DNA from: Nitrospirota bacterium | GTDB lineage: Bacteria > Nitrospirota > UBA9217 | Assembly (NCBI GenBank): GCA_963818475.1 | Contig: CAWFSF010000006.1 | Span: 224,001-288,000 of the forward strand | DNA: 64,000 nucleotides | Direction of reading: 5' to 3' | Shown here: piece after piece, positions 13,583 through 53,945 of the stretch | Layout: each line of letters begins with the position of its first letter | How positions within the stretch are numbered: the stretch's first letter is position 1 | The notes under the pieces: model-generated | What the model was told of the DNA's origin: nothing | The model's database searches: none | Seen by the model: the letters and a program-made list of their open reading frames with translations, nothing else | Position numbers and translations under genes: made by a program

Positions 13583-13625
13583 CTTTCACGCGATAACGCG
13601 GGTTCGAATCCCGCTGGGGACGCCA
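13583..13625 (+). repeat. attR1: duplicated 3' half of tRNA-Glu (1-nt deletion)
   Basis: ctttcacgcgataacgcgggttcgaatcccgctggggacgcca. Confidence 0.95.
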
Positions 13626-13761
13626 TTAAAAAGTAAAAGAATCAGAACCTTTACGGGCCTGGTTCTTTTTATTTTTGGTACACAAGGTGGGCTCCGGGTG
13701 AAACCTGGGGCTTTTTCTTTTGGCTTGCAATATATCGGTATATGATATATATTGATATCCG

Positions 13762-17235: not shown

Positions 17236-17279
17236 CTTTCACGGCGATAACGCGGGTTCGAATCCCGCTGGGGACGCCA
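17236..17279 (+). repeat. attR2: duplicated 3' half of tRNA-Glu
   Basis: ctttcacggcgataacgcgggttcgaatcccgctggggacgcca, identical to 9453-9496. Confidence 0.95.
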
Positions 17280-17300
17280 TTAAAAAAAAAGAATCAGACC

Positions 17301-19213
17301 GTTCGCAGTAACAACTGATTATCTCGCGGGTTCAAGTCCCGCCCAAGGAGTTGTCCGTACACCTTGGTAGCACGAGGGAGCGGCGTCTGAGCAATCAGAG
17401 GTCGTGAGTTCCCAAACGGCAAAGCTACAGGCCGCAGCGAAAGCGAACCTACACGTAGCCTCGTAACTTATTCGGAGATGCCGACCTTGTGGTCAAATGG
17501 GGAAGGCCGATGCGCGCTGATTCAGACAACGGAATCGATCTGTGCGATCTCCCGGGGTAGCAGGGGCGGCATGCAGCGGAAGATAAGCAGTCCAGTGCTG
17601 GAGACCCCATACAGTGATGTTAGAGGAACATCAACCGGTGCGTATAAGGAAACGAAAACGCACTGGGCTGTATCGGGAGTCGGAGGGGTCCATAGTATCG
17701 TTTGAAGGTATGGGACAACATAACCCTGCCCAAGAAAAGGGACCCTGCTTTGTTCACGCAACCGAAGGAGAGAGGATGAGGGGATTGCAGAGATGCTAAC
17801 AACCCCAGATACAATCAGGACACTCCAGAGGAAGCTCTACCGTAAGGCCAAGCAAGAACCGGCCTACCGCTTTTACGCGCTCTACGACAAGATACACCGG
17901 GCCGACATCCTCAGTCACGCCTACCATCTTGTCAGGGCCAACAAAGGAAGCGCCGGCATCGACGGCGTCACCTTCGAGGCCATAGAGACCGGAGAAGGGG
18001 TAATCGCCTTTTTGGCGGAGCTGCAAGAAGCACTGAAGAGCAAGACCTATGCACCAAACCCTGTAAAGCGCGTCATGATCCCCAAAGGAGACGGCACAGA
18101 GCGTCCCTTGGGAATCCCGACCATTAGGGACAGGGTGGCCCAGATGGCCGTAAAACTGGTCATCGAACCGATATTTGAAGCGGATTTTATAGACACCTCA
18201 TACGGATTCAGACCCAAGAAGTCGGCCCATGATGCAATCGAAGACATATCGTATGCCCTTAACTGCGGTTATACGGAAGTCATCGACGCCGATGTGTCCA
18301 GGTACTTCGACACCATTCCCCATGCCAAACTCATGGCCGTGGTCGCCGAGCGCATCGTTGACAGTGCGATTCTGCACATTATCCAGATGTGGCTCAAGGC
18401 CCCGGTTATGGAAGTGGACAAGGACGGAACGAAGCGCAACATCGGCGGCGGCAAGGCAAACACCAAAGGAACACCGCAGGGCGGTGTCATCTCGCCGCTC
18501 CTGGCCAATCTCTATCTGCACCTGTTAGATAGGATATGGCATAAGAAGAAGCTTCAGTATAGGCTCGAAGCGCGTCTTGTCCGGTATGCCGACGATTTTG
18601 TCGTGCTGTGCAGAAAGGGAACTGAGCAGCCGATGGCGGTTGTGCGCCGGGTGCTCGAACGACTGGGACTTGTACTCAATGAGAACAAGACCCGCATGGT
18701 GAACGCCAAGCAAGAAGGCTTCAACTTCCTTGGATTTGAACTTCGTATGGGGAAAAGTCGGAGAACGGGCAACCTTTACCCCCTTATACAACCGTCACGA
18801 AAAGCCCTGAAGAAGATCAAAGACAGCGTTACCGCTCTTACACACAGGCGGATGACGCCGAAGCCGCTTACTATGATAATCGAAGATATCAATACCGCCC
18901 TCCGGGGCTGGGTCGGGTACTTTCATTACCGCAATAGCAGCAAGGCGTTCAATCGTCTCAAGTTTCATGTGGAAGCGCGAGTGCGCACGCATCTGCGAAA
19001 GCGGCATAAGATCAAAAGCAGGGCAGCGGGGTTTACCAGGTTCACCAACAGGTCTTTGTACGAGAAGTATGGGCTCTATAAAGTGCCGACGACAGCGGGC
19101 TGGCTGAAGGCGCATGCCTTGCGGTGAAGAACATCGGAAAGCCGTGTGCGGGAAAACTGCATGCACGGTTTGATGAGGGAGGGCTGGTCAATACGACCAG
19201 CTCTCTACTCTAC
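17301..19213 (+). mobile_element. Group II intron, copy 1 (1913 nt)
   Basis: 5' GTTCG, EBS1 loop GGTCAA (17491-17496), RT ORF, D5 AAGCCGTGTGCGGGAAAACTGCATGCACGGTTTG, D6 ending CTACTCTAC. Boundaries fixed by four copies and an empty allele near 13640. Confidence 0.95.
17793..19127 (+). CDS. ltrA: Group II intron reverse transcriptase/maturase (no endonuclease domain)
   Basis: RPLGIPTIRDR, SYGFRP, GTPQGGVISPLLAN, RYADD, FLGF, X domain RGWVGYF. Confidence 0.97.
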   Translation: MLTTPDTIRTLQRKLYRKAKQEPAYRFYALYDKIHRADILSHAYHLVRANKGSAGIDGVTFEAIETGEGVIAFLAELQEALKSKTYAPNPVKRVMIPKGDGTERPLGIPTIRDRVAQMAVKLVIEPIFEADFIDTSYGFRPKKSAHDAIEDISYALNCGYTEVIDADVSRYFDTIPHAKLMAVVAERIVDSAILHIIQMWLKAPVMEVDKDGTKRNIGGGKANTKGTPQGGVISPLLANLYLHLLDRIWHKKKLQYRLEARLVRYADDFVVLCRKGTEQPMAVVRRVLERLGLVLNENKTRMVNAKQEGFNFLGFELRMGKSRRTGNLYPLIQPSRKALKKIKDSVTALTHRRMTPKPLTMIIEDINTALRGWVGYFHYRNSSKAFNRLKFHVEARVRTHLRKRHKIKSRAAGFTRFTNRSLYEKYGLYKVPTTAGWLKAHALR

Positions 19214-19334
19214 CTTTACGGGACTGGTTCTTTTTATTTTTGGTACACAAATGGTACACAGAATCAGGATGCAACGCATGTTCGATTTTAATCGTCACTC
19301 CGGGTCAAATTCCCCGCCGCTTGCGGTAGAGTTA

Positions 19335-42662: not shown

Positions 42663-42713
42663 GGGGTCGCATCTATGATGGAGTAAACGCTTCAATTGCA
42701 AAGATGCGGCCCC
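42663..42713. repeat. REP-like inverted repeat
   Basis: GGGGTCGCATCT ... AGATGCGGCCCC (11/12 complementary). Confidence 0.7.
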
Positions 42714-42832
42714 TTGTATTCCTTCTCAATTTCCTAATGGCAGACAATGGTTTCTGAATGCCAAAAGTAAAGACCTGAGAGCTTGGGCTGGTTGGGCTCT
42801 CCTGTAGCTATATAAACATTAAGGACCTGACC

Positions 42833-44745
42833 GTTCGCAGTAACAACTGATTATCTCGCGGGTTCAAGTCCCGCCCAAGGAGTTGTCCGTACACCTTGGT
42901 AGCACGAGGGAGCGGCGTCTGAGCAATCAGAGGTCGTGAGTTCCCAAACGGCAAAGCTACAGGCCGCAGCGAAAGCGAACCTACACGTAGCCTCGTAACT
43001 TATTCGGAGATGCCGACCTTGTGGTCAAATGGGGAAGGCCGATGCGCGCTGATTCAGACAACGGAATCGATCTGTGCGATCTCCCGGGGTAGCAGGGGCG
43101 GCATGTAGCGGAAGATAAGCAGTCCAGTGCTGGAGACCCCATACAGTGATGTTAGAGGAACATCAACCGGTGCGTATAAGGAAACGAAAACGCACTGGGC
43201 TGTATCGGGAGTCGGAGGGGTCCATAGTATCGTTTGAAGGTATGGGACAACATAACCCTGCCCGAGAAAAGGGACCCTGCTTTGTTCACGCAACCGAAGG
43301 AGAGAGGATGAGGGGATTGCAGAGATGCTAACAACCCCAGATACAATCAGGACACTCCAGAGGAAGCTCTACCGTAAGGCCAAGCAAGAACCGGCCTACC
43401 GCTTTTACGCGCTCTACGACAAGATACACCGGGCCGACATCCTCAGTCACGCCTACCATCTTGTCAGGGCCAACAAAGGAAGCGCCGGCATCGACGGCGT
43501 CACCTTCGAGGCCATAGAGACCGGAGAAGGGGTAATCGCCTTTTTGGCGGAGCTGCAAGAAGCACTGAAGAGCAAGACCTATGCACCAAACCCTGTAAAG
43601 CGCGTCATGATCCCCAAAGGAGACGGCACAGAGCGTCCCTTGGGAATCCCGACCATTAGGGACAGGGTGGCCCAGATGGCCGTAAAACTGGTCATCGAAC
43701 CGATATTTGAAGCGGATTTTATAGACACCTCATACGGATTCAGACCCAAGAAGTCGGCCCATGATGCAATCGAAGACATATCGTATGCCCTTAACTGCGG
43801 TTATACGGAAGTCATCGACGCCGATGTGTCCAGGTACTTCGACACCATTCCCCATGCCAAACTCATGGCCGTGGTCGCCGAGCGCATCGTTGACAGTGCG
43901 ATTCTGCACATTATCCAGATGTGGCTCAAGGCCCCGGTTATGGAAGTGGACAAGGACGGAACGAAGCGCAACATCGGCGGCGGCAAGGCAAACACCAAAG
44001 GAACACCGCAGGGCGGTGTCATCTCGCCGCTCCTGGCCAATCTCTATCTGCACCTGTTAGATAGGATATGGCATAAGAAGAAGCTTCAGTATAGGCTCGA
44101 AGCGCGTCTTGTCCGGTATGCCGACGATTTTGTCGTGCTGTGCAGAAAGGGAACTGAGCAGCCGATGGCGGTTGTGCGCCGGGTGCTCGAACGACTGGGA
44201 CTTGTACTCAATGAGAACAAGACCCGCATGGTGAACGCCAAGCAAGAAGGCTTCAACTTCCTTGGATTTGAACTTCGTATGGGGAAAAGTCGGAGAACGG
44301 GCAACCTTTACCCCCTTATACAACCGTCACGAAAAGCCCTGAAGAAGATCAAAGACAGCGTTACCGCTCTTACACACAGGCGGATGACGCCGAAGCCGCT
44401 TACTATGATAATCGAAGATATCAATACCGCCCTCCGGGGCTGGGTCGGGTACTTTCATTACCGCAATAGCAGCAAGGCGTTCAATCGTCTCAAGTTTCAT
44501 GTGGAAGCGCGAGTGCGCACGCATCTGCGAAAGCGGCATAAGATCAAAAGCAGGGCAGCGGGGTTTACCAGGTTCACCAACAGGTCTTTGTACGAGAAGT
44601 ATGGGCTCTATAAAGTGCCGACGACAGCGGGCTGGCTGAAGGCGCATGCCTTGCGGTGAAGAACATCGGAAAGCCGTGTGCGGGAAAACTGCATGCACGG
44701 TTTGATGAGGGAGGGCTGGTCAATACGACCAGCTCTCTACTCTAC
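42833..44745 (+). mobile_element. Group II intron, copy 2
   Basis: Same as copy 1 apart from two SNPs seen; junction AAGGACCTGACC|CTAAC. Confidence 0.95.
43325..44659 (+). CDS. ltrA: Group II intron RT/maturase
   Basis: Protein identical to 17793-19127. Confidence 0.97.
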   Translation: MLTTPDTIRTLQRKLYRKAKQEPAYRFYALYDKIHRADILSHAYHLVRANKGSAGIDGVTFEAIETGEGVIAFLAELQEALKSKTYAPNPVKRVMIPKGDGTERPLGIPTIRDRVAQMAVKLVIEPIFEADFIDTSYGFRPKKSAHDAIEDISYALNCGYTEVIDADVSRYFDTIPHAKLMAVVAERIVDSAILHIIQMWLKAPVMEVDKDGTKRNIGGGKANTKGTPQGGVISPLLANLYLHLLDRIWHKKKLQYRLEARLVRYADDFVVLCRKGTEQPMAVVRRVLERLGLVLNENKTRMVNAKQEGFNFLGFELRMGKSRRTGNLYPLIQPSRKALKKIKDSVTALTHRRMTPKPLTMIIEDINTALRGWVGYFHYRNSSKAFNRLKFHVEARVRTHLRKRHKIKSRAAGFTRFTNRSLYEKYGLYKVPTTAGWLKAHALR

Positions 44746-44959
44746 CTAACAAGTCTTAAAAGCTTGTATCGAAGATGGACGTTCTTGCAAAATTGGAGGA
44801 GATTAAGCTGGAAGTCGCGGCAAAAGCCAGCACTCAACGCCTTGCGAATGGAATTCAAAAATATGTAATTGACGGGCTTTGTAAGTTGCTGTAAGACGGC
44901 TACTAAGCTTCGAAACTTGACTTGATTTGGATCACAAATGGCAATATTCAAGTCTGACC

Positions 44960-46872
44960 GTTCGCAGTAACAACTGATTATCTCGCGGGTTCAAGTCCCG
45001 CCCAAGGAGTTGTCCGTACACCTTGGTAGCACGAGGGAGCGGCGTCTGAGCAATCAGAGGTCGTGAGTTCCCAAACGGCAAAGCTACAGGCCGCAGCGAA
45101 AGCGAACCTACACGTAGCCTCGTAACTTATTCGGAGATGCCGACCTTGTGGTCAAATGGGGAAGGCCGATGCGCGCTGATTCAGACAACGGAATCGATCT
45201 GTGCGATCTCCCGGGGTAGCAGGGGCGGCATGTAGCGGAAGATAAGCAGTCCAGTGCTGGAGACCCCATACAGTGATGTTAGAGGAACATCAACCGGTGC
45301 GTATAAGGAAACGAAAACGCACTGGGCTGTATCGGGAGTCGGAGGGGTCCATAGTATCGTTTGAAGGTATGGGACAACATAACCCTGCCCGAGAAAAGGG
45401 ACCCTGCTTTGTTCACGCAACCGAAGGAGAGAGGATGAGGGGATTGCAGAGATGCTAACAACCCCAGATACAATCAGGACACTCCAGAGGAAGCTCTACC
45501 GTAAGGCCAAGCAAGAACCGGCCTACCGCTTTTACGCGCTCTACGACAAGATACACCGGGCCGACATCCTCAGTCACGCCTACCATCTTGTCAGGGCCAA
45601 CAAAGGAAGCGCCGGCATCGACGGCGTCACCTTCGAGGCCATAGAGACCGGAGAAGGGGTAATCGCCTTTTTGGCGGAGCTGCAAGAAGCACTGAAGAGC
45701 AAGACCTATGCACCAAACCCTGTAAAGCGCGTCATGATCCCCAAAGGAGACGGCACAGAGCGTCCCTTGGGAATCCCGACCATTAGGGACAGGGTGGCCC
45801 AGATGGCCGTAAAACTGGTCATCGAACCGATATTTGAAGCGGATTTTATAGACACCTCATACGGATTCAGACCCAAGAAGTCGGCCCATGATGCAATCGA
45901 AGACATATCGTATGCCCTTAACTGCGGTTATACGGAAGTCATCGACGCCGATGTGTCCAGGTACTTCGACACCATTCCCCATGCCAAACTCATGGCCGTG
46001 GTCGCCGAGCGCATCGTTGACAGTGCGATTCTGCACATTATCCAGATGTGGCTCAAGGCCCCGGTTATGGAAGTGGACAAGGACGGAACGAAGCGCAACA
46101 TCGGCGGCGGCAAGGCAAACACCAAAGGAACACCGCAGGGCGGTGTCATCTCGCCGCTCCTGGCCAATCTCTATCTGCACCTGTTAGATAGGATATGGCA
46201 TAAGAAGAAGCTTCAGTATAGGCTCGAAGCGCGTCTTGTCCGGTATGCCGACGATTTTGTCGTGCTGTGCAGAAAGGGAACTGAGCAGCCGATGGCGGTT
46301 GTGCGCCGGGTGCTCGAACGACTGGGACTTGTACTCAATGAGAACAAGACCCGCATGGTGAACGCCAAGCAAGAAGGCTTCAACTTCCTTGGATTTGAAC
46401 TTCGTATGGGGAAAAGTCGGAGAACGGGCAACCTTTACCCCCTTATACAACCGTCACGAAAAGCCCTGAAGAAGATCAAAGACAGCGTTACCGCTCTTAC
46501 ACACAGGCGGATGACGCCGAAGCCGCTTACTATGATAATCGAAGATATCAATACCGCCCTCCGGGGCTGGGTCGGGTACTTTCATTACCGCAATAGCAGC
46601 AAGGCGTTCAATCGTCTCAAGTTTCATGTGGAAGCGCGAGTGCGCACGCATCTGCGAAAGCGGCATAAGATCAAAAGCAGGGCAGCGGGGTTTACCAGGT
46701 TCACCAACAGGTCTTTGTACGAGAAGTATGGGCTCTATAAAGTGCCGACGACAGCGGGCTGGCTGAAGGCGCATGCCTTGCGGTGAAGAACATCGGAAAG
46801 CCGTGTGCGGGAAAACTGCATGCACGGTTTGATGAGGGAGGGCTGGTCAATACGACCAGCTCTCTACTCTAC
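44960..46872 (+). mobile_element. Group II intron, copy 3
   Basis: Junction TTCAAGTCTGACC|CCAAAG. Confidence 0.95.
45452..46786 (+). CDS. ltrA: Group II intron RT/maturase
   Basis: Identical protein. Confidence 0.97.
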   Translation: MLTTPDTIRTLQRKLYRKAKQEPAYRFYALYDKIHRADILSHAYHLVRANKGSAGIDGVTFEAIETGEGVIAFLAELQEALKSKTYAPNPVKRVMIPKGDGTERPLGIPTIRDRVAQMAVKLVIEPIFEADFIDTSYGFRPKKSAHDAIEDISYALNCGYTEVIDADVSRYFDTIPHAKLMAVVAERIVDSAILHIIQMWLKAPVMEVDKDGTKRNIGGGKANTKGTPQGGVISPLLANLYLHLLDRIWHKKKLQYRLEARLVRYADDFVVLCRKGTEQPMAVVRRVLERLGLVLNENKTRMVNAKQEGFNFLGFELRMGKSRRTGNLYPLIQPSRKALKKIKDSVTALTHRRMTPKPLTMIIEDINTALRGWVGYFHYRNSSKAFNRLKFHVEARVRTHLRKRHKIKSRAAGFTRFTNRSLYEKYGLYKVPTTAGWLKAHALR

Positions 46873-47026
46873 CCAAAGGCACTCGCTGTAATGGCACGAA
46901 TTATCTTCCGTAACTGCGGCGTAAGGATAGAGGCGTTGGCTGGCTCTCAGAGTGGACATAACTTATATTTAGCAAGTGAGGGTGGGAGGGGGCGGGACGC
47001 CCCTGAAGAAAAACTAAGGAGGCTTT

Positions 47027-47725
47027 ATGGATACCCTGATCAACATATTGCTTCTGCTGGTGAGTTTTGCCGGTGCATTGACAGCCTTTACCGGCGATAC
47101 CTTAAACAAAAACGCGGCAACGGTGTATGGACGCATTACGCGGGTAGGGTGGTTTTCCATTTTACTGTTGCTCATTGCTTTCAACATAGGCATATGGAAA
47201 GAACTTCGTGAACAGGACAAAGGCAAGGTGCAGGAAGCCAAAGCAAAAGAGCAATATGAGCGGGCGATGCGTGCGGAACAACAGCTTGCGATTGCACAAG
47301 CGAAAATCGATGCATTAAAACCAGCCGTGGTAAAAGCCGTTTCAACCATGACCCAGGATATCCCGAAAGAATATGATGACGGCTTTATGAATTTGAATAG
47401 CCAGCCTGAAGCAGCGCTCATGTCGAATCGAAGCAAAGATACCCTGAAACTGTACGGAGGGGATGATTTCGAATATCACTGTTATTGCGGCAATGGATCT
47501 CTTGCAACGCCCGCATCCGTCAGCGGACTATATTTAAAGGTCGGTACGCGGGGCTATCCCCTGGAGTCCAATGGAGGGACATGGCGCATAGCCGGGCCCG
47601 CAGGTCAGGCACTGGAGGGCAGAATTATCAACCCTGGACGCGCTAAATGCGATATCAAGTATATCGTAAGGTCGACAGTTCGTACCCGGTCGAAGCAACA
47701 ATTGACTGACGCGCTGCAGGAATGA
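47027..47725 (+). CDS. Hypothetical membrane protein (2 TM, coiled coil, beta domain)
   Basis: RBS AAGGAGG; hydrophobic N-terminus. Confidence 0.7.
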   Translation: MDTLINILLLLVSFAGALTAFTGDTLNKNAATVYGRITRVGWFSILLLLIAFNIGIWKELREQDKGKVQEAKAKEQYERAMRAEQQLAIAQAKIDALKPAVVKAVSTMTQDIPKEYDDGFMNLNSQPEAALMSNRSKDTLKLYGGDDFEYHCYCGNGSLATPASVSGLYLKVGTRGYPLESNGGTWRIAGPAGQALEGRIINPGRAKCDIKYIVRSTVRTRSKQQLTDALQE

Positions 47726-47746
47726 TTTTCGGGCCATGCCTGGAAA

Positions 47747-47792
47747 GTCAAATCTTCGATGTTGACAAGTATGTAACGAATGAAGATTTGAC
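47747..47792. repeat. REP-like hairpin ending at the intron copy 4 insertion site
   Basis: GTCAAATCTTC-N24-GAAGATTTGAC, perfect 11-bp arms. Confidence 0.8.
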
Positions 47793-47793
47793 C

Positions 47794-49706
47794 GTTCGCA
47801 GTAACAACTGATTATCTCGCGGGTTCAAGTCCCGCCCAAGGAGTTGTCCGTACACCTTGGTAGCACGAGGGAGCGGCGTCTGAGCAATCAGAGGTCGTGA
47901 GTTCCCAAACGGCAAAGCTACAGGCCGCAGCGAAAGCGAACCTACACGTAGCCTCGTAACTTATTCGGAGATGCCGACCTTGTGGTCAAATGGGGAAGGC
48001 CGATGCGCGCTGATTCAGACAACGGAATCGATCTGTGCGATCTCCCGGGGTAGCAGGGGCGGCATGTAGCGGAAGATAAGCAGTCCAGTGCTGGAGACCC
48101 CATACAGTGATGTTAGAGGAACATCAACCGGTGCGTATAAGGAAACGAAAACGCACTGGGCTGTATCGGGAGTCGGAGGGGTCCATAGTATCGTTTGAAG
48201 GTATGGGACAACATAACCCTGCCCGAGAAAAGGGACCCTGCTTTGTTCACGCAACCGAAGGAGAGAGGATGAGGGGATTGCAGAGATGCTAACAACCCCA
48301 GATACAATCAGGACACTCCAGAGGAAGCTCTACCGTAAGGCCAAGCAAGAACCGGCCTACCGCTTTTACGCGCTCTACGACAAGATACACCGGGCCGACA
48401 TCCTCAGTCACGCCTACCATCTTGTCAGGGCCAACAAAGGAAGCGCCGGCATCGACGGCGTCACCTTCGAGGCCATAGAGACCGGAGAAGGGGTAATCGC
48501 CTTTTTGGCGGAGCTGCAAGAAGCACTGAAGAGCAAGACCTATGCACCAAACCCTGTAAAGCGCGTCATGATCCCCAAAGGAGACGGCACAGAGCGTCCC
48601 TTGGGAATCCCGACCATTAGGGACAGGGTGGCCCAGATGGCCGTAAAACTGGTCATCGAACCGATATTTGAAGCGGATTTTATAGACACCTCATACGGAT
48701 TCAGACCCAAGAAGTCGGCCCATGATGCAATCGAAGACATATCGTATGCCCTTAACTGCGGTTATACGGAAGTCATCGACGCCGATGTGTCCAGGTACTT
48801 CGACACCATTCCCCATGCCAAACTCATGGCCGTGGTCGCCGAGCGCATCGTTGACAGTGCGATTCTGCACATTATCCAGATGTGGCTCAAGGCCCCGGTT
48901 ATGGAAGTGGACAAGGACGGAACGAAGCGCAACATCGGCGGCGGCAAGGCAAACACCAAAGGAACACCGCAGGGCGGTGTCATCTCGCCGCTCCTGGCCA
49001 ATCTCTATCTGCACCTGTTAGATAGGATATGGCATAAGAAGAAGCTTCAGTATAGGCTCGAAGCGCGTCTTGTCCGGTATGCCGACGATTTTGTCGTGCT
49101 GTGCAGAAAGGGAACTGAGCAGCCGATGGCGGTTGTGCGCCGGGTGCTCGAACGACTGGGACTTGTACTCAATGAGAACAAGACCCGCATGGTGAACGCC
49201 AAGCAAGAAGGCTTCAACTTCCTTGGATTTGAACTTCGTATGGGGAAAAGTCGGAGAACGGGCAACCTTTACCCCCTTATACAACCGTCACGAAAAGCCC
49301 TGAAGAAGATCAAAGACAGCGTTACCGCTCTTACACACAGGCGGATGACGCCGAAGCCGCTTACTATGATAATCGAAGATATCAATACCGCCCTCCGGGG
49401 CTGGGTCGGGTACTTTCATTACCGCAATAGCAGCAAGGCGTTCAATCGTCTCAAGTTTCATGTGGAAGCGCGAGTGCGCACGCATCTGCGAAAGCGGCAT
49501 AAGATCAAAAGCAGGGCAGCGGGGTTTACCAGGTTCACCAACAGGTCTTTGTACGAGAAGTATGGGCTCTATAAAGTGCCGACGACAGCGGGCTGGCTGA
49601 AGGCGCATGCCTTGCGGTGAAGAACATCGGAAAGCCGTGTGCGGGAAAACTGCATGCACGGTTTGATGAGGGAGGGCTGGTCAATACGACCAGCTCTCTA
49701 CTCTAC
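47794..49706 (+). mobile_element. Group II intron, copy 4
   Basis: Junction GAAGATTTGACC|CCCG. Confidence 0.95.
48286..49620 (+). CDS. ltrA: Group II intron RT/maturase
   Basis: Identical protein. Confidence 0.97.
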   Translation: MLTTPDTIRTLQRKLYRKAKQEPAYRFYALYDKIHRADILSHAYHLVRANKGSAGIDGVTFEAIETGEGVIAFLAELQEALKSKTYAPNPVKRVMIPKGDGTERPLGIPTIRDRVAQMAVKLVIEPIFEADFIDTSYGFRPKKSAHDAIEDISYALNCGYTEVIDADVSRYFDTIPHAKLMAVVAERIVDSAILHIIQMWLKAPVMEVDKDGTKRNIGGGKANTKGTPQGGVISPLLANLYLHLLDRIWHKKKLQYRLEARLVRYADDFVVLCRKGTEQPMAVVRRVLERLGLVLNENKTRMVNAKQEGFNFLGFELRMGKSRRTGNLYPLIQPSRKALKKIKDSVTALTHRRMTPKPLTMIIEDINTALRGWVGYFHYRNSSKAFNRLKFHVEARVRTHLRKRHKIKSRAAGFTRFTNRSLYEKYGLYKVPTTAGWLKAHALR

Positions 49707-49711
49707 CCCGT

Positions 49712-50023
49712 ATGTTTCACCCGTCTTCCTGGAAAGGTATACCATTGTCCCTTACTTTTAGCGGTACGTTGAACCTAAGTGTCGATGTTGTTCGTGGCAA
49801 TCCAGTGGATATTTTTTTAATAGATCAATCAGAGTTAGAAAATTATCAGAATCATAAACAGTTTAATCATTATACTAATTTCACGGCAGACAAAACAAAG
49901 GTTTACAAACGTTCAGCTCGTTTAGCAGAAGGTATTTATTATCTTGTCCTCCGTGATAATACTCTCGGCATTCTGTCTGCCTCAAGTAGCGATGTAAAAA
50001 TAATGGCACGATTAGAACCCTGA
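49712..50023 (+). CDS. Hypothetical beta-sandwich protein, probably 5'-truncated
   Basis: AT-rich ORF with no RBS directly after the intron. Confidence 0.5.
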   Translation: MFHPSSWKGIPLSLTFSGTLNLSVDVVRGNPVDIFLIDQSELENYQNHKQFNHYTNFTADKTKVYKRSARLAEGIYYLVLRDNTLGILSASSSDVKIMARLEP

Positions 50024-50428
50024 GGTCGTGAATAAAAATAAACGCCAAAATAAAAGACCTGACACTGAAAGGGTCGATTTCGGCAACTGGGTGAGAATTC
50101 CGCAATAAGCGTGATGTGCTTAGGTGGATGAAGAAATAAGGGGACAAACTGACTTTATGCTTTTTCGATAAAGCCAGCTTGCCCCTCGTTATTCAGGGCG
50201 AACAGGAGAAGCTTAGGAAAGCATAGATAGAAACAATGTCCCGCAAGTGGTCCCAGTCAGATTCAAAAAAAACACTTGGAGTCATTCAACAACAAGTGCC
50301 AGGAGTCTCTGAATAGTCCCCGGTTATGATGCAATAGGGATCGTCGGCATGCGGCCGGTGCCATTTTATGGTACAAGTATTGCGAAATCTCTTTCATAAA
50401 CACTGAATTTCATACGAGGGGGTAGGTA

Positions 50429-53810: not shown

Positions 53811-53945
53811 TAAAGTCCCGACGACAGCGGGCTGGACGAAGGCGCATGCCTTGCGGCTGAAGAACATCGAAAGCTGTGTGCGGGAAAACCGCATGCACGG
53901 TTTGATGAGGGAGAGCTGGTCATTACGACCAGCTCTCTACTCTAC
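53811..53945 (+). mobile_element. 5'-truncated group II intron remnant (ORF end, D5, D6)
   Basis: Diverged match to the last ~135 nt of the intron; exact CTACTCTAC end followed by CC. Confidence 0.9.

Follow-up and report, generated by a model that had tools for sequence, protein, structure and literature searches.

A 64,000-nucleotide stretch of the genome of a Nitrospirota bacterium (G000:C6:224001-288000, hereafter the window; coordinates without a contig name refer to it) contains several copies of a group II intron. Our analysis indicates that this intron, which lacks an endonuclease and does not resemble class C (IIC) introns, probably homes by base pairing to the foot of repetitive extragenic palindromic (REP)-like repeats linked to REP-associated tyrosine transposases (RAYTs). 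Insertion is specified by base pairing and the insertion sites are members of repeat families, with reservations for two sites that are set out below. That the hairpin formed by some of these repeats, rather than their sequence, is needed for homing is unproven, and a role for the hairpin foot in priming or fork stalling is speculation. An original prediction had described homing into REP-like palindromes carrying the motif AAGA-N3-GACC|C (the bar marks the insertion point); it is partly supported, being largely right in kind and overstated for G000.

Retrohoming would proceed by RNA-DNA base pairing, in which the 6-nt exon-binding site 1 (EBS1) recognizes (T)TGACC while the C at +1 is matched by a G. 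The target read in this way would be the conserved foot of REP-like repeats, GGGTCA....TGACC|C(C), which appear to be intergenic, to occur as solo units or as inverted doublets capable of forming hairpins, and to flank RAYT-like Y1 transposase genes in several genomes. Because the repeat foot is multicopy and intergenic it would offer the intron many harmless landing sites, and local clustering of these repeats would explain the presence of three copies within 7 kb. Insertion presumably occurs into the single-stranded lagging-strand template with nascent DNA as the primer, as in other endonuclease-less introns, and an AAG(R) element conserved upstream of the insertion point may also be recognized. 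The G-rich strand carries the intron at all six sites in G000 and at three of four in a second genome, G001, a bias that is consistent with use of the lagging-strand template, into which RmInt1 is reported to insert.

Intron copies and their boundaries

An Rfam scan of the window identified four full group II introns, all on the + strand, together with a fifth remnant comprising only domains V and VI (D5-D6). Copy 1 (17301-19213, 1913 nt) has two substitutions relative to copies 2, 3 and 4 (42833-44745, 44960-46872 and 47794-49706), which are identical to one another in sequence and contain open reading frames (ORFs) at 43325-44659, 45452-46786 and 48286-49620 for a 444-aa reverse transcriptase (RT)/maturase with a YADD motif. 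Each of the four window copies scores 54.2 bits against RF00029 (gathering threshold 40) and 66.1 bits against RF02005 (gathering threshold 49). Two further copies outside the window (C2:835848-837761 and C6:880830-882742) bring the genome total to six, with pairwise identities of 99.9-100% by exact comparison, and every copy begins with GTTCGC and ends with CTCTAC. The RT is intact with its YADD motif in five of the six, the C2 copy carrying a 1-nt insertion, and the nearest RTs, in records of Nitrospirota metagenome-assembled genomes, are 95-97% identical. Judged from these sequences, the intron has probably been active in G000 recently.

The 444-aa product has RVT_1 (1.5e-38) and GIIM (3.8e-16) domains and matches TIGR04416 at 396.8 bits (cut-off 300); the domain search returned these two domains and no endonuclease (HNH/En) domain, as predicted. 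The predicted junctions and flanks of copies 2 to 4 are likewise correct by exact comparison, with 5' exons ending in ..AAGGACCTGACC, ..TCAAGTCTGACC and ..GAAGATTTGACC, and 3' exons beginning with CT, CC and CC, respectively. All six copies in the genome are inserted at GACC|C. We considered whether copies 2 to 4 might interrupt a single gene and rejected this, as the region rebuilt without the introns has no reading frame across the junctions and the adjoining ORFs have no family matches.

EBS1-IBS1 pairing and intron class

The sequence GGTCAA, proposed to pair with TTGACC in the 5' exon, is located in copy 1 at 17491-17496, within the EBS1 loop of the Rfam domain I (D1) alignment, and the corresponding positions in copies 2, 3 and 4 are 43023-43028, 45150-45155 and 47984-47989, all on the + strand. 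Support for this pairing comes from 59 family members drawn from 80 loci in many phyla, in which the EBS1 loop pairs with exon positions -1 to -6, the intron-binding site 1 (IBS1), with between 43 and 59 of the 59 sequences paired at each position. Covariation at positions 3, 5 and 6 exceeds that in all 500 shuffles, and compensatory EBS1:IBS1 pairs include GGACGU:ACGUCC, GGAUGA:UCGUCC and GUAGCG:CGCUAC. A search of 58 relatives for an equivalent EBS2-IBS2 interaction gave no conserved complementary column, the best being paired in 15 of 58 versus 52 of 58 for EBS1, and the complementarity between loop and exon in the expected internal loop is marginal (4.17 observed versus 3.98 +/- 0.08 in shuffled sequences). 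Neither the column search nor the internal-loop complementarity revealed an EBS2 partner for the conserved upstream AAG(R).

Manual reading of the alignment shows that the upper helix of D5 closes a 5-nt loop, GAAAA, and the ribozyme without its ORF is 578 nt (1913 - 1335). These values and the missing En domain agree with the description of IIE and IIF introns in section 4 of PMC3753933 (a D5 loop of 5 nt, 450-700 nt once the ORF is subtracted, and an ORF lacking En). For class C the passages on pairing give an IBS1-EBS1 interaction of 3-4 bp (PMC7923331, PMC3753933) and a ribozyme of ~400 nt; here the pairing is 6 bp with covariation, and insertion, which class C introns make directly behind the stem-loop of a terminator or attC, falls inside the 3' foot of repeat-family palindromes or 1 nt past it, mostly with no T run, one site being in a terminator loop. 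The top PDB matches of the RT are IIC RTs (179 and 171 bits), with a small margin over a IIB RT (155 bits). On the basis of its structural hallmarks the intron looks IIB-type and IIE/IIF-like and, in keeping with the prediction, not IIC-like.

There are nonetheless likenesses to IIC introns, in that this intron has no endonuclease domain, is multicopy and intergenic, has no clear EBS2, and inserts in association with a DNA inverted repeat. A relaxed 'safe landing pad' strategy is described for IIC introns in passages of PMC4424553, PMC7306698 and PMC1702495. The differences are that the EBS1-IBS1 pairing is 6 bp and covarying, that IBS1 lies in the 3' foot of the stem and not after the stem, that the ribozyme measures about 578 nt and its D5 loop 5 nt, and that the hairpins are repeat-family doublets, mostly without a T run, and not terminators. 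Homing sites are used by all lineages except class C according to the relevant passage of PMC4424553, with targeting linked to inverted repeats restricted to class C, and PMC7923331 notes that upstream structures have no reported role in IIB introns. So far the landing-pad habit has been described only for class C introns; here it probably occurs in an intron that is non-IIC-like.

In many of the related introns (L009-L011, L015, L017, L018, L021-L029 and others) the sequence following D5 departs from the usual ..CTCTACTCTAC end and enters conserved blocks, such as ..GGCTAT|TTAGGCACCG.. or ..GACAC|GTAGTAGCCGCG.., and because of this departure the 3' boundaries of such relatives were left unused. 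The departing sequence may be a different D6, a 3' extension or a nested element.

Insertion sites in G000

Three of the six copies are inserted at the 3' foot of members of a single palindrome family with 11-12-bp arms and 24-nt loops. Copy 4 is located 1 nt past the 3' foot of the palindrome at 47747-47792, which has 11-bp arms and TTGACA in its loop, and which as DNA folds at -12 kcal/mol (z -5.9), with none of 200 shuffles as good; the inverted repeat reported at this site is therefore real. The two copies outside the window, C2:835848 and C6:880830, are at the 3' feet of near-identical 12-bp palindromes of the form ..ATAGGGTCACTTCTTT-24 nt-AAAGAAG[C/T]GACC|CCAA with unrelated outer flanks, and an empty third copy of this palindrome is present at C6:878157-878203. 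Both of these sites carry the AAGA element as well as the 12-bp palindrome, and share more with the window sites than IBS1; on this point the prediction passed the refutation test that had been set for it. Between the empty palindrome upstream and the intron-occupied one downstream lies a 783-aa ORF (C6:878308-880659; L002:4308-6659) that has no Pfam family and a CFI-box-CTERM match below threshold.

Searches with nhmmer and inverted-repeat scans identified further members at C5:160455, C3:266437, C6:744627 and C1:341997, as well as an unoccupied 12-bp palindrome at 42663-42713 (z -3.8), the foot of which reads GGCC instead of GACC on the + strand. In total G000 has about 10 palindromes and about 13 solo units. 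The 3' arm of the 42663-42713 palindrome (42701-42713) had been listed as one of three unoccupied related sites. The other two resemble a five-copy solo repeat and are not hairpins: 50043-50067 (+ strand, ..AAAATAAAAGACCTGACACTG; originally listed as 50041-50065) is an unoccupied member that differs from the target at position -1, 42757-42780 is a more decayed look-alike, and a fold check found no hairpin in either.

The remaining three sites are more heterogeneous. The 5' exon of copy 2 is a solo REP-like unit (42814-42832, + strand, ..AAACATTAAGGACCTGACC, with CTA as the 3' exon) that matches the inverted repeats flanking a Y1 gene elsewhere in the genome, and there is no hairpin upstream of this site. 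Copy 3 does follow the inverted repeat GACTTGA..TCAAGTC to which attention had been drawn, located 5 nt upstream at 44919-44954, but with 7 bp it is weak (z -2.2, 7 of 200 shuffles as good) and is possibly a decayed member of the palindrome family. Copy 1 interrupts the loop of a hairpin that resembles a terminator, with an A-tract and a T-tract, after a 3' fragment resembling a tmRNA or tRNA. ARAGORN found no tRNA or tmRNA gene before 17301, and the Rfam match was limited to an 18-nt T-arm-like stretch. A paralog of the copy-1 site that is empty and about 92% identical is present 3.6 kb upstream (13617-13680, + strand) and has GAAC where the occupied site has GACC; this mismatch at -2 would break the IBS1 pairing, and the paralog therefore serves as a natural mismatch control. 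The segment at 13590-13680 and that formed by 17240-17300 plus 19214-19245 are direct copies (~92% identical) of the tmRNA/tRNA-like 3' fragment followed by the terminator, and look like the att-type ends of a small integrated island.

To quantify the association with hairpins, all 8212 GACC|C sites in G000 were scored. A hairpin score of at least 9 is reached at 37 of these, three of which are occupied, and the other three occupied sites are among the 8175 that remain, an association in excess of chance for this genome. The 24-nt spacer is not a preferred length among all 10-bp inverted repeats of G000.

Insertion sites of related introns

The hairpin association extends to other genomes. Of the 5' flanks of related introns, 57 once redundancy is removed, 12 have a hairpin that scores at least 10 and ends at the insertion point; for control positions taken from these loci the figure is 3 of 2040. 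The stems are up to 22 bp long and differ in sequence, and most of those printed with their flank begin with GGG(G) and then the IBS1 complement. A filled, orthologue-like palindrome is present in locus L005.

These data could also be explained if targeting were structure-dependent, with the intron ribonucleoprotein requiring the palindrome's DNA hairpin on the single-stranded lagging-strand template, either through direct recognition of the hairpin, as in IIC introns, or through a stall of DNA synthesis at its 3' foot that leaves a primer end beside the inserted intron. We regard such a requirement as unlikely, but it draws on several observations: hairpins are 0-2 nt from the insertion point at three of the six G000 sites and at 12 of the 57 relatives' sites versus 3 of the 2040 controls, the stems vary in sequence and reach 22 bp, sites with a good IBS1 and no hairpin stay empty, and the strand bias is compatible with a single-stranded DNA target. 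In addition, no robust EBS2-IBS2 pairing was found (4.17 versus 3.98 +/- 0.08), so that a further determinant could be at work, as it is in IIC. However, IBS1 is within the stem, where the hairpin would hide it from EBS1, whereas the IBS1 of IIC introns is outside the stem. No hairpin is found upstream of the sites at 17301 and 42833, and one of the two occupied arms of the AATCGAGTCTGACC family in G001 is a solo arm. Moreover, about 21-23% of relatives' sites have a hairpin, a proportion that does not exceed that of arms occurring as doublets in the repeat families, so that homing to the arms can by itself give rise to the hairpins.

Target repeats in other genomes

We next examined whether such arms recur within the genomes that carry them; in three genomes, including G000, they form multicopy families. 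In the complete chromosome of G001, a member of the Nitrospirales (loci L070, L078, L080 and L081), the arm AATCGAGTCTGACC is present in 33 copies and its reversed control in none. At least five inverted doublets are formed, with spacers of about 30 nt, and the intron occupies two of the 32 arms read, of which one belongs to a doublet and the other is solo. A second G001 family, ..GCAAGACCTGACC|C, numbers 19 copies (0-1 for the control); its motif is also present at two intron-occupied sites. In G006 (Geobacter argillaceus, locus L019) the arm ATGGAGAGTTGACC has 22 exact copies, or about 28 as a dispersed repeat, mostly in doublets about 50 nt apart, of which there are at least eight, and the reversed-pattern control gives far fewer.

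In G001 the intron shares its target with a DNA element. At loci L123-L141, ..ATGTGGCAYTGCAAGACCTGACC very often continues, exactly at the intron insertion point, into an element with terminal inverted repeats CAATACTGTTCACTTAGAT.., the other end of which is again followed by AGACCTGACCCC; this element therefore uses both the target and the phosphodiester position of the intron.

Association with Y1 transposase genes

The repeats targeted by the intron border RAYT-like Y1 genes in each of the same three genomes. In G000 the Y1 gene at C3:146191 is flanked by inverted repeats that match the 5' exon of intron copy 2, and a second Y1 gene, at C5:403573, lies between its own inverted ..GACYTGACCCTAAA units. 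Some 13 solo units of this kind are scattered over the genome, including that at 50043-50067. Locus L147 of G001 has a 231-aa Y1_Tnp protein encoded between two inverted arms. In locus L158 of G006, arms at 540-566 and 1548-1573 enclose an ORF (543-1496) for a Y1_Tnp protein of 317 aa whose tail is DnaA_C-like and which at 84.7 bits passes the cut-off of 80 for NF047646 (REP_Tyr_transpos). Between the three genomes, the Y1 proteins share 34-43% identity over 200-240 residues.

The likeness to REP/REPIN-RAYT systems is thus one of arrangement: extragenic palindromic units are dispersed in G001, G006 and G000, often as inverted doublets with a spacer, alongside solo units and clusters, and a Y1 gene is found between inverted units of the same family in each, as in a REPtron. 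Section 12 of PMC6006769 describes the REPtron as a Y1 gene flanked by inverted units and canonical REPs as having a GT[AG]G tag and hundreds of copies. Here the feet are GGGTCA/TGACCC without a GT[AG]G tag, there are tens of copies at most and not more than 100 per genome, and the Y1 proteins are 230-330 aa, some with a DnaA_C-like helix-turn-helix tail. The predicted RAYT connection accordingly holds for the Y1 genes of G000 and two other genomes, and the tag expected of REPs is missing. The same section mentions atypical Y1 subclasses with weaker, untagged motifs, and the repeats described here may correspond to the 'atypical' subclasses 2.6/3 as they are outlined there.

Observations that weigh against homing to RAYT-linked repeats

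A number of results count against this interpretation. The class of the intron rests on structural hallmarks. The Y1 proteins of G000 and G001 score 68.2 and 72.2 against NF047646, below the cut-off of 80, and an arm of the palindrome family in the expected form is within 1.8 kb at one of 11 Y1 loci in G000. An inverted-repeat scan of eight G000 Y1 loci found no such palindromes; the inverted repeats at two of these eight emerged on direct reading of the ends. Site 17301 is outside any repeat family and the membership of site 44960 is doubtful. Contrary to the prediction that it would be a dispersed repeat, AAGA-N3-GACC|C is not over-represented in G000 (46 sites versus 32-66 for permuted patterns), nor are GTGACCCC and CTGACCCC enriched genome-wide. 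Good-looking targets are left empty, such as C6:1163074 and three copies of ..AAAAGACGTGACC|C, and occupancy is therefore far from saturated. About three quarters of the relatives' sites (44 of 57) have no long hairpin, and the target arm is low-copy (1-4 copies) in G002, G003 and G004, which limits the generality of the finding. As to the original proposal of REP-like palindromes as a landing pad, then, what stands is that the sites belong to repeat families tied to RAYT-like Y1 genes; the G000 families are small, copy 1 is in a terminator loop, and no need for the hairpin emerges.

G000 also contains a perfect 13-bp hairpin with a 6-nt loop that ends in ..AAGAAAGGTGACC|CAAAGAAG and by its look is a good target. 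None of its seven copies (C2:811266, C5:383330, C6:749223, C6:1929261, C3:274238, C5:366409 and C6:732479) is occupied, and the hairpin is probably part of another repeated element.

Part of this evidence would fit ordinary site-specific homing followed by survivorship, in which ~12-14 nt are read, harmless intergenic insertions persist, and the likeness of the sites to repeats is incidental. The lack of motif enrichment in G000 and the lack of a hairpin at most relatives' sites are both as expected if this were so, and a passage of PMC7306698 notes that introns 'hide' in mobile elements and intergenic DNA. We nonetheless consider this account improbable, as the target arm is multicopy in three independent genomes (reversed patterns yield 0-1 copies in G001 and, in G006, many fewer than the arm), and the same families border RAYT-like genes. 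Furthermore, even with no more than a tenth of the GACC|C sites in intergenic DNA, the 37 hairpin-bearing ones in 8212 would not yield three of six.

Other mobile elements at the palindromes

The palindromes are also associated with DNA transposons. An insertion sequence (IS) of the ISL3 family at C6:904594-906345 (L001:4594-6345) has a frameshifted transposase (DDE_Tnp_ISL3, Zn_ribbon_ISL3) and recurs at C1:342042 and at the start of C2; copies are at contig ends, and the assembly therefore probably broke at this IS. Its end, ACGGGTTGTTGCTCAAATGAC.., directly adjoins a palindrome arm (GGGGTCACTTCTTT|). A MITE (a transposable element of the miniature inverted-repeat type) of ~135 bp with the same termini (ACGGGCTGTTGCCCAAA...TTTGAGCAACARCCCGT) is inserted at junctions between palindrome arm and loop (C3:266315-266620, C3:19917-20050, C6:744491-744630 and C5:763140-763290), the first of these regions being one palindrome in which both junctions have a MITE copy. 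The intron thus shares the palindromes, as a hot spot, with a DNA transposon.

We also considered whether the palindromes are integron attC sites or whether the intron is a passive passenger of a mobile palindrome of the MITE or REPIN type. The 40-50 kb region of the window looks cassette-like, with small ORFs parted by imperfect palindromes, the MITE and the ISL3-like IS adjoin the same arms, and passages of PMC7923331 describe IIC-attC introns and a few IIB introns beside attC. On direct reading, however, the feet are GGGTCA..TGACCC and not RYYYAAC..GTTRRRY, and the best match to the integron integrase TIGR02249 is 105 bits against a cut-off of 265, with sub-threshold matches in all 14 control genomes. 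With the attC cores absent and no integrase above cut-off, identity with attC was rejected. The outer flanks differ among occupied sites and the intron is off-centre in one arm, so that the intron copies are separate insertions, and we think it most improbable that either possibility explains the data.

A second, related intron species is represented by remnants that are 90-93% identical: the D5-D6 3' fragment at 53811-53945 (+ strand, 93%), G000:C6:908952-909048 and C6:904268-904321. Its 5' exon ends in ..AACAACGTCC, which is compatible with the EBS1 variant GGACGU of relatives. The motif GCAAC[A/G]TAAGTAACAACG is present at three places, one of them within a 13-bp palindrome beside a Y1 gene.

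Discussion

If the intron homes by base pairing to the foot of RAYT-linked repeats, its behavior has partial parallels among other mobile elements. Several ISs (IS1397, ISPpu9/10, ISPa11 and ISPsy8, and IS481 in SBW25) use REPs, like the intron, as a multicopy extragenic palindrome that is both a specific and a harmless target, as listed in a table of PMC1525189 and in parts of PMC11708052. They differ in being DNA transposons with recognition by protein, whereas here a retroelement would read the repeat foot by RNA pairing. RmInt1, a class D intron, is similar in that it is endonuclease-less and, in the accounts given in passages of PMC8914252 and PMC5894124, multiplies in a repeated mobile element, ISRm2011-2, using the lagging-strand template. 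Its target differs, being within a transposase gene and read via EBS1, EBS2 and EBS3, and not a palindromic non-coding foot.

An intron-REP association has also been seen in Pseudomonas putida KT2440, in a group II intron that we take to be class C. Two of its nine copies are REP-associated according to a single table row in PMC1525189, the only printed association of this kind that we found, and that row gives no class, mechanism or RAYT link. Our search found no paper on a non-IIC intron lineage that targets REP or REPIN repeats, within a literature collection with few subscription journals and no supplements.

A broader and more tentative idea, which we think possible though doubtful, is that a non-IIC lineage, in at least Nitrospirota, Desulfobacterota and Proteobacteria, is a hyper-parasite of one RAYT-type class of repeats. 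It would read the GGGTCA..TGACC|C foot, presumably a requirement of the Y1 transposase as well, and would exploit the same single-stranded hairpins of the lagging strand, perhaps with replication stalled at the hairpin foot as the source of the primer.

If true, this would mean that group II introns evolved hairpin-linked targeting a second time, independently, and would make a retroelement dependent on the repeats of a DNA transposon. An intron lineage that combines a full 6-bp EBS1 with life on RAYT-linked palindromic repeats would show how endonuclease-less introns can multiply without harm to the host, account for the local clusters of introns in such genomes, and provide a natural, testable system for asking whether DNA hairpins aid retrohoming outside class C. 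It would also connect two fields otherwise kept apart, group II introns and REPIN/RAYT systems, both acting on single-stranded DNA of the lagging strand.

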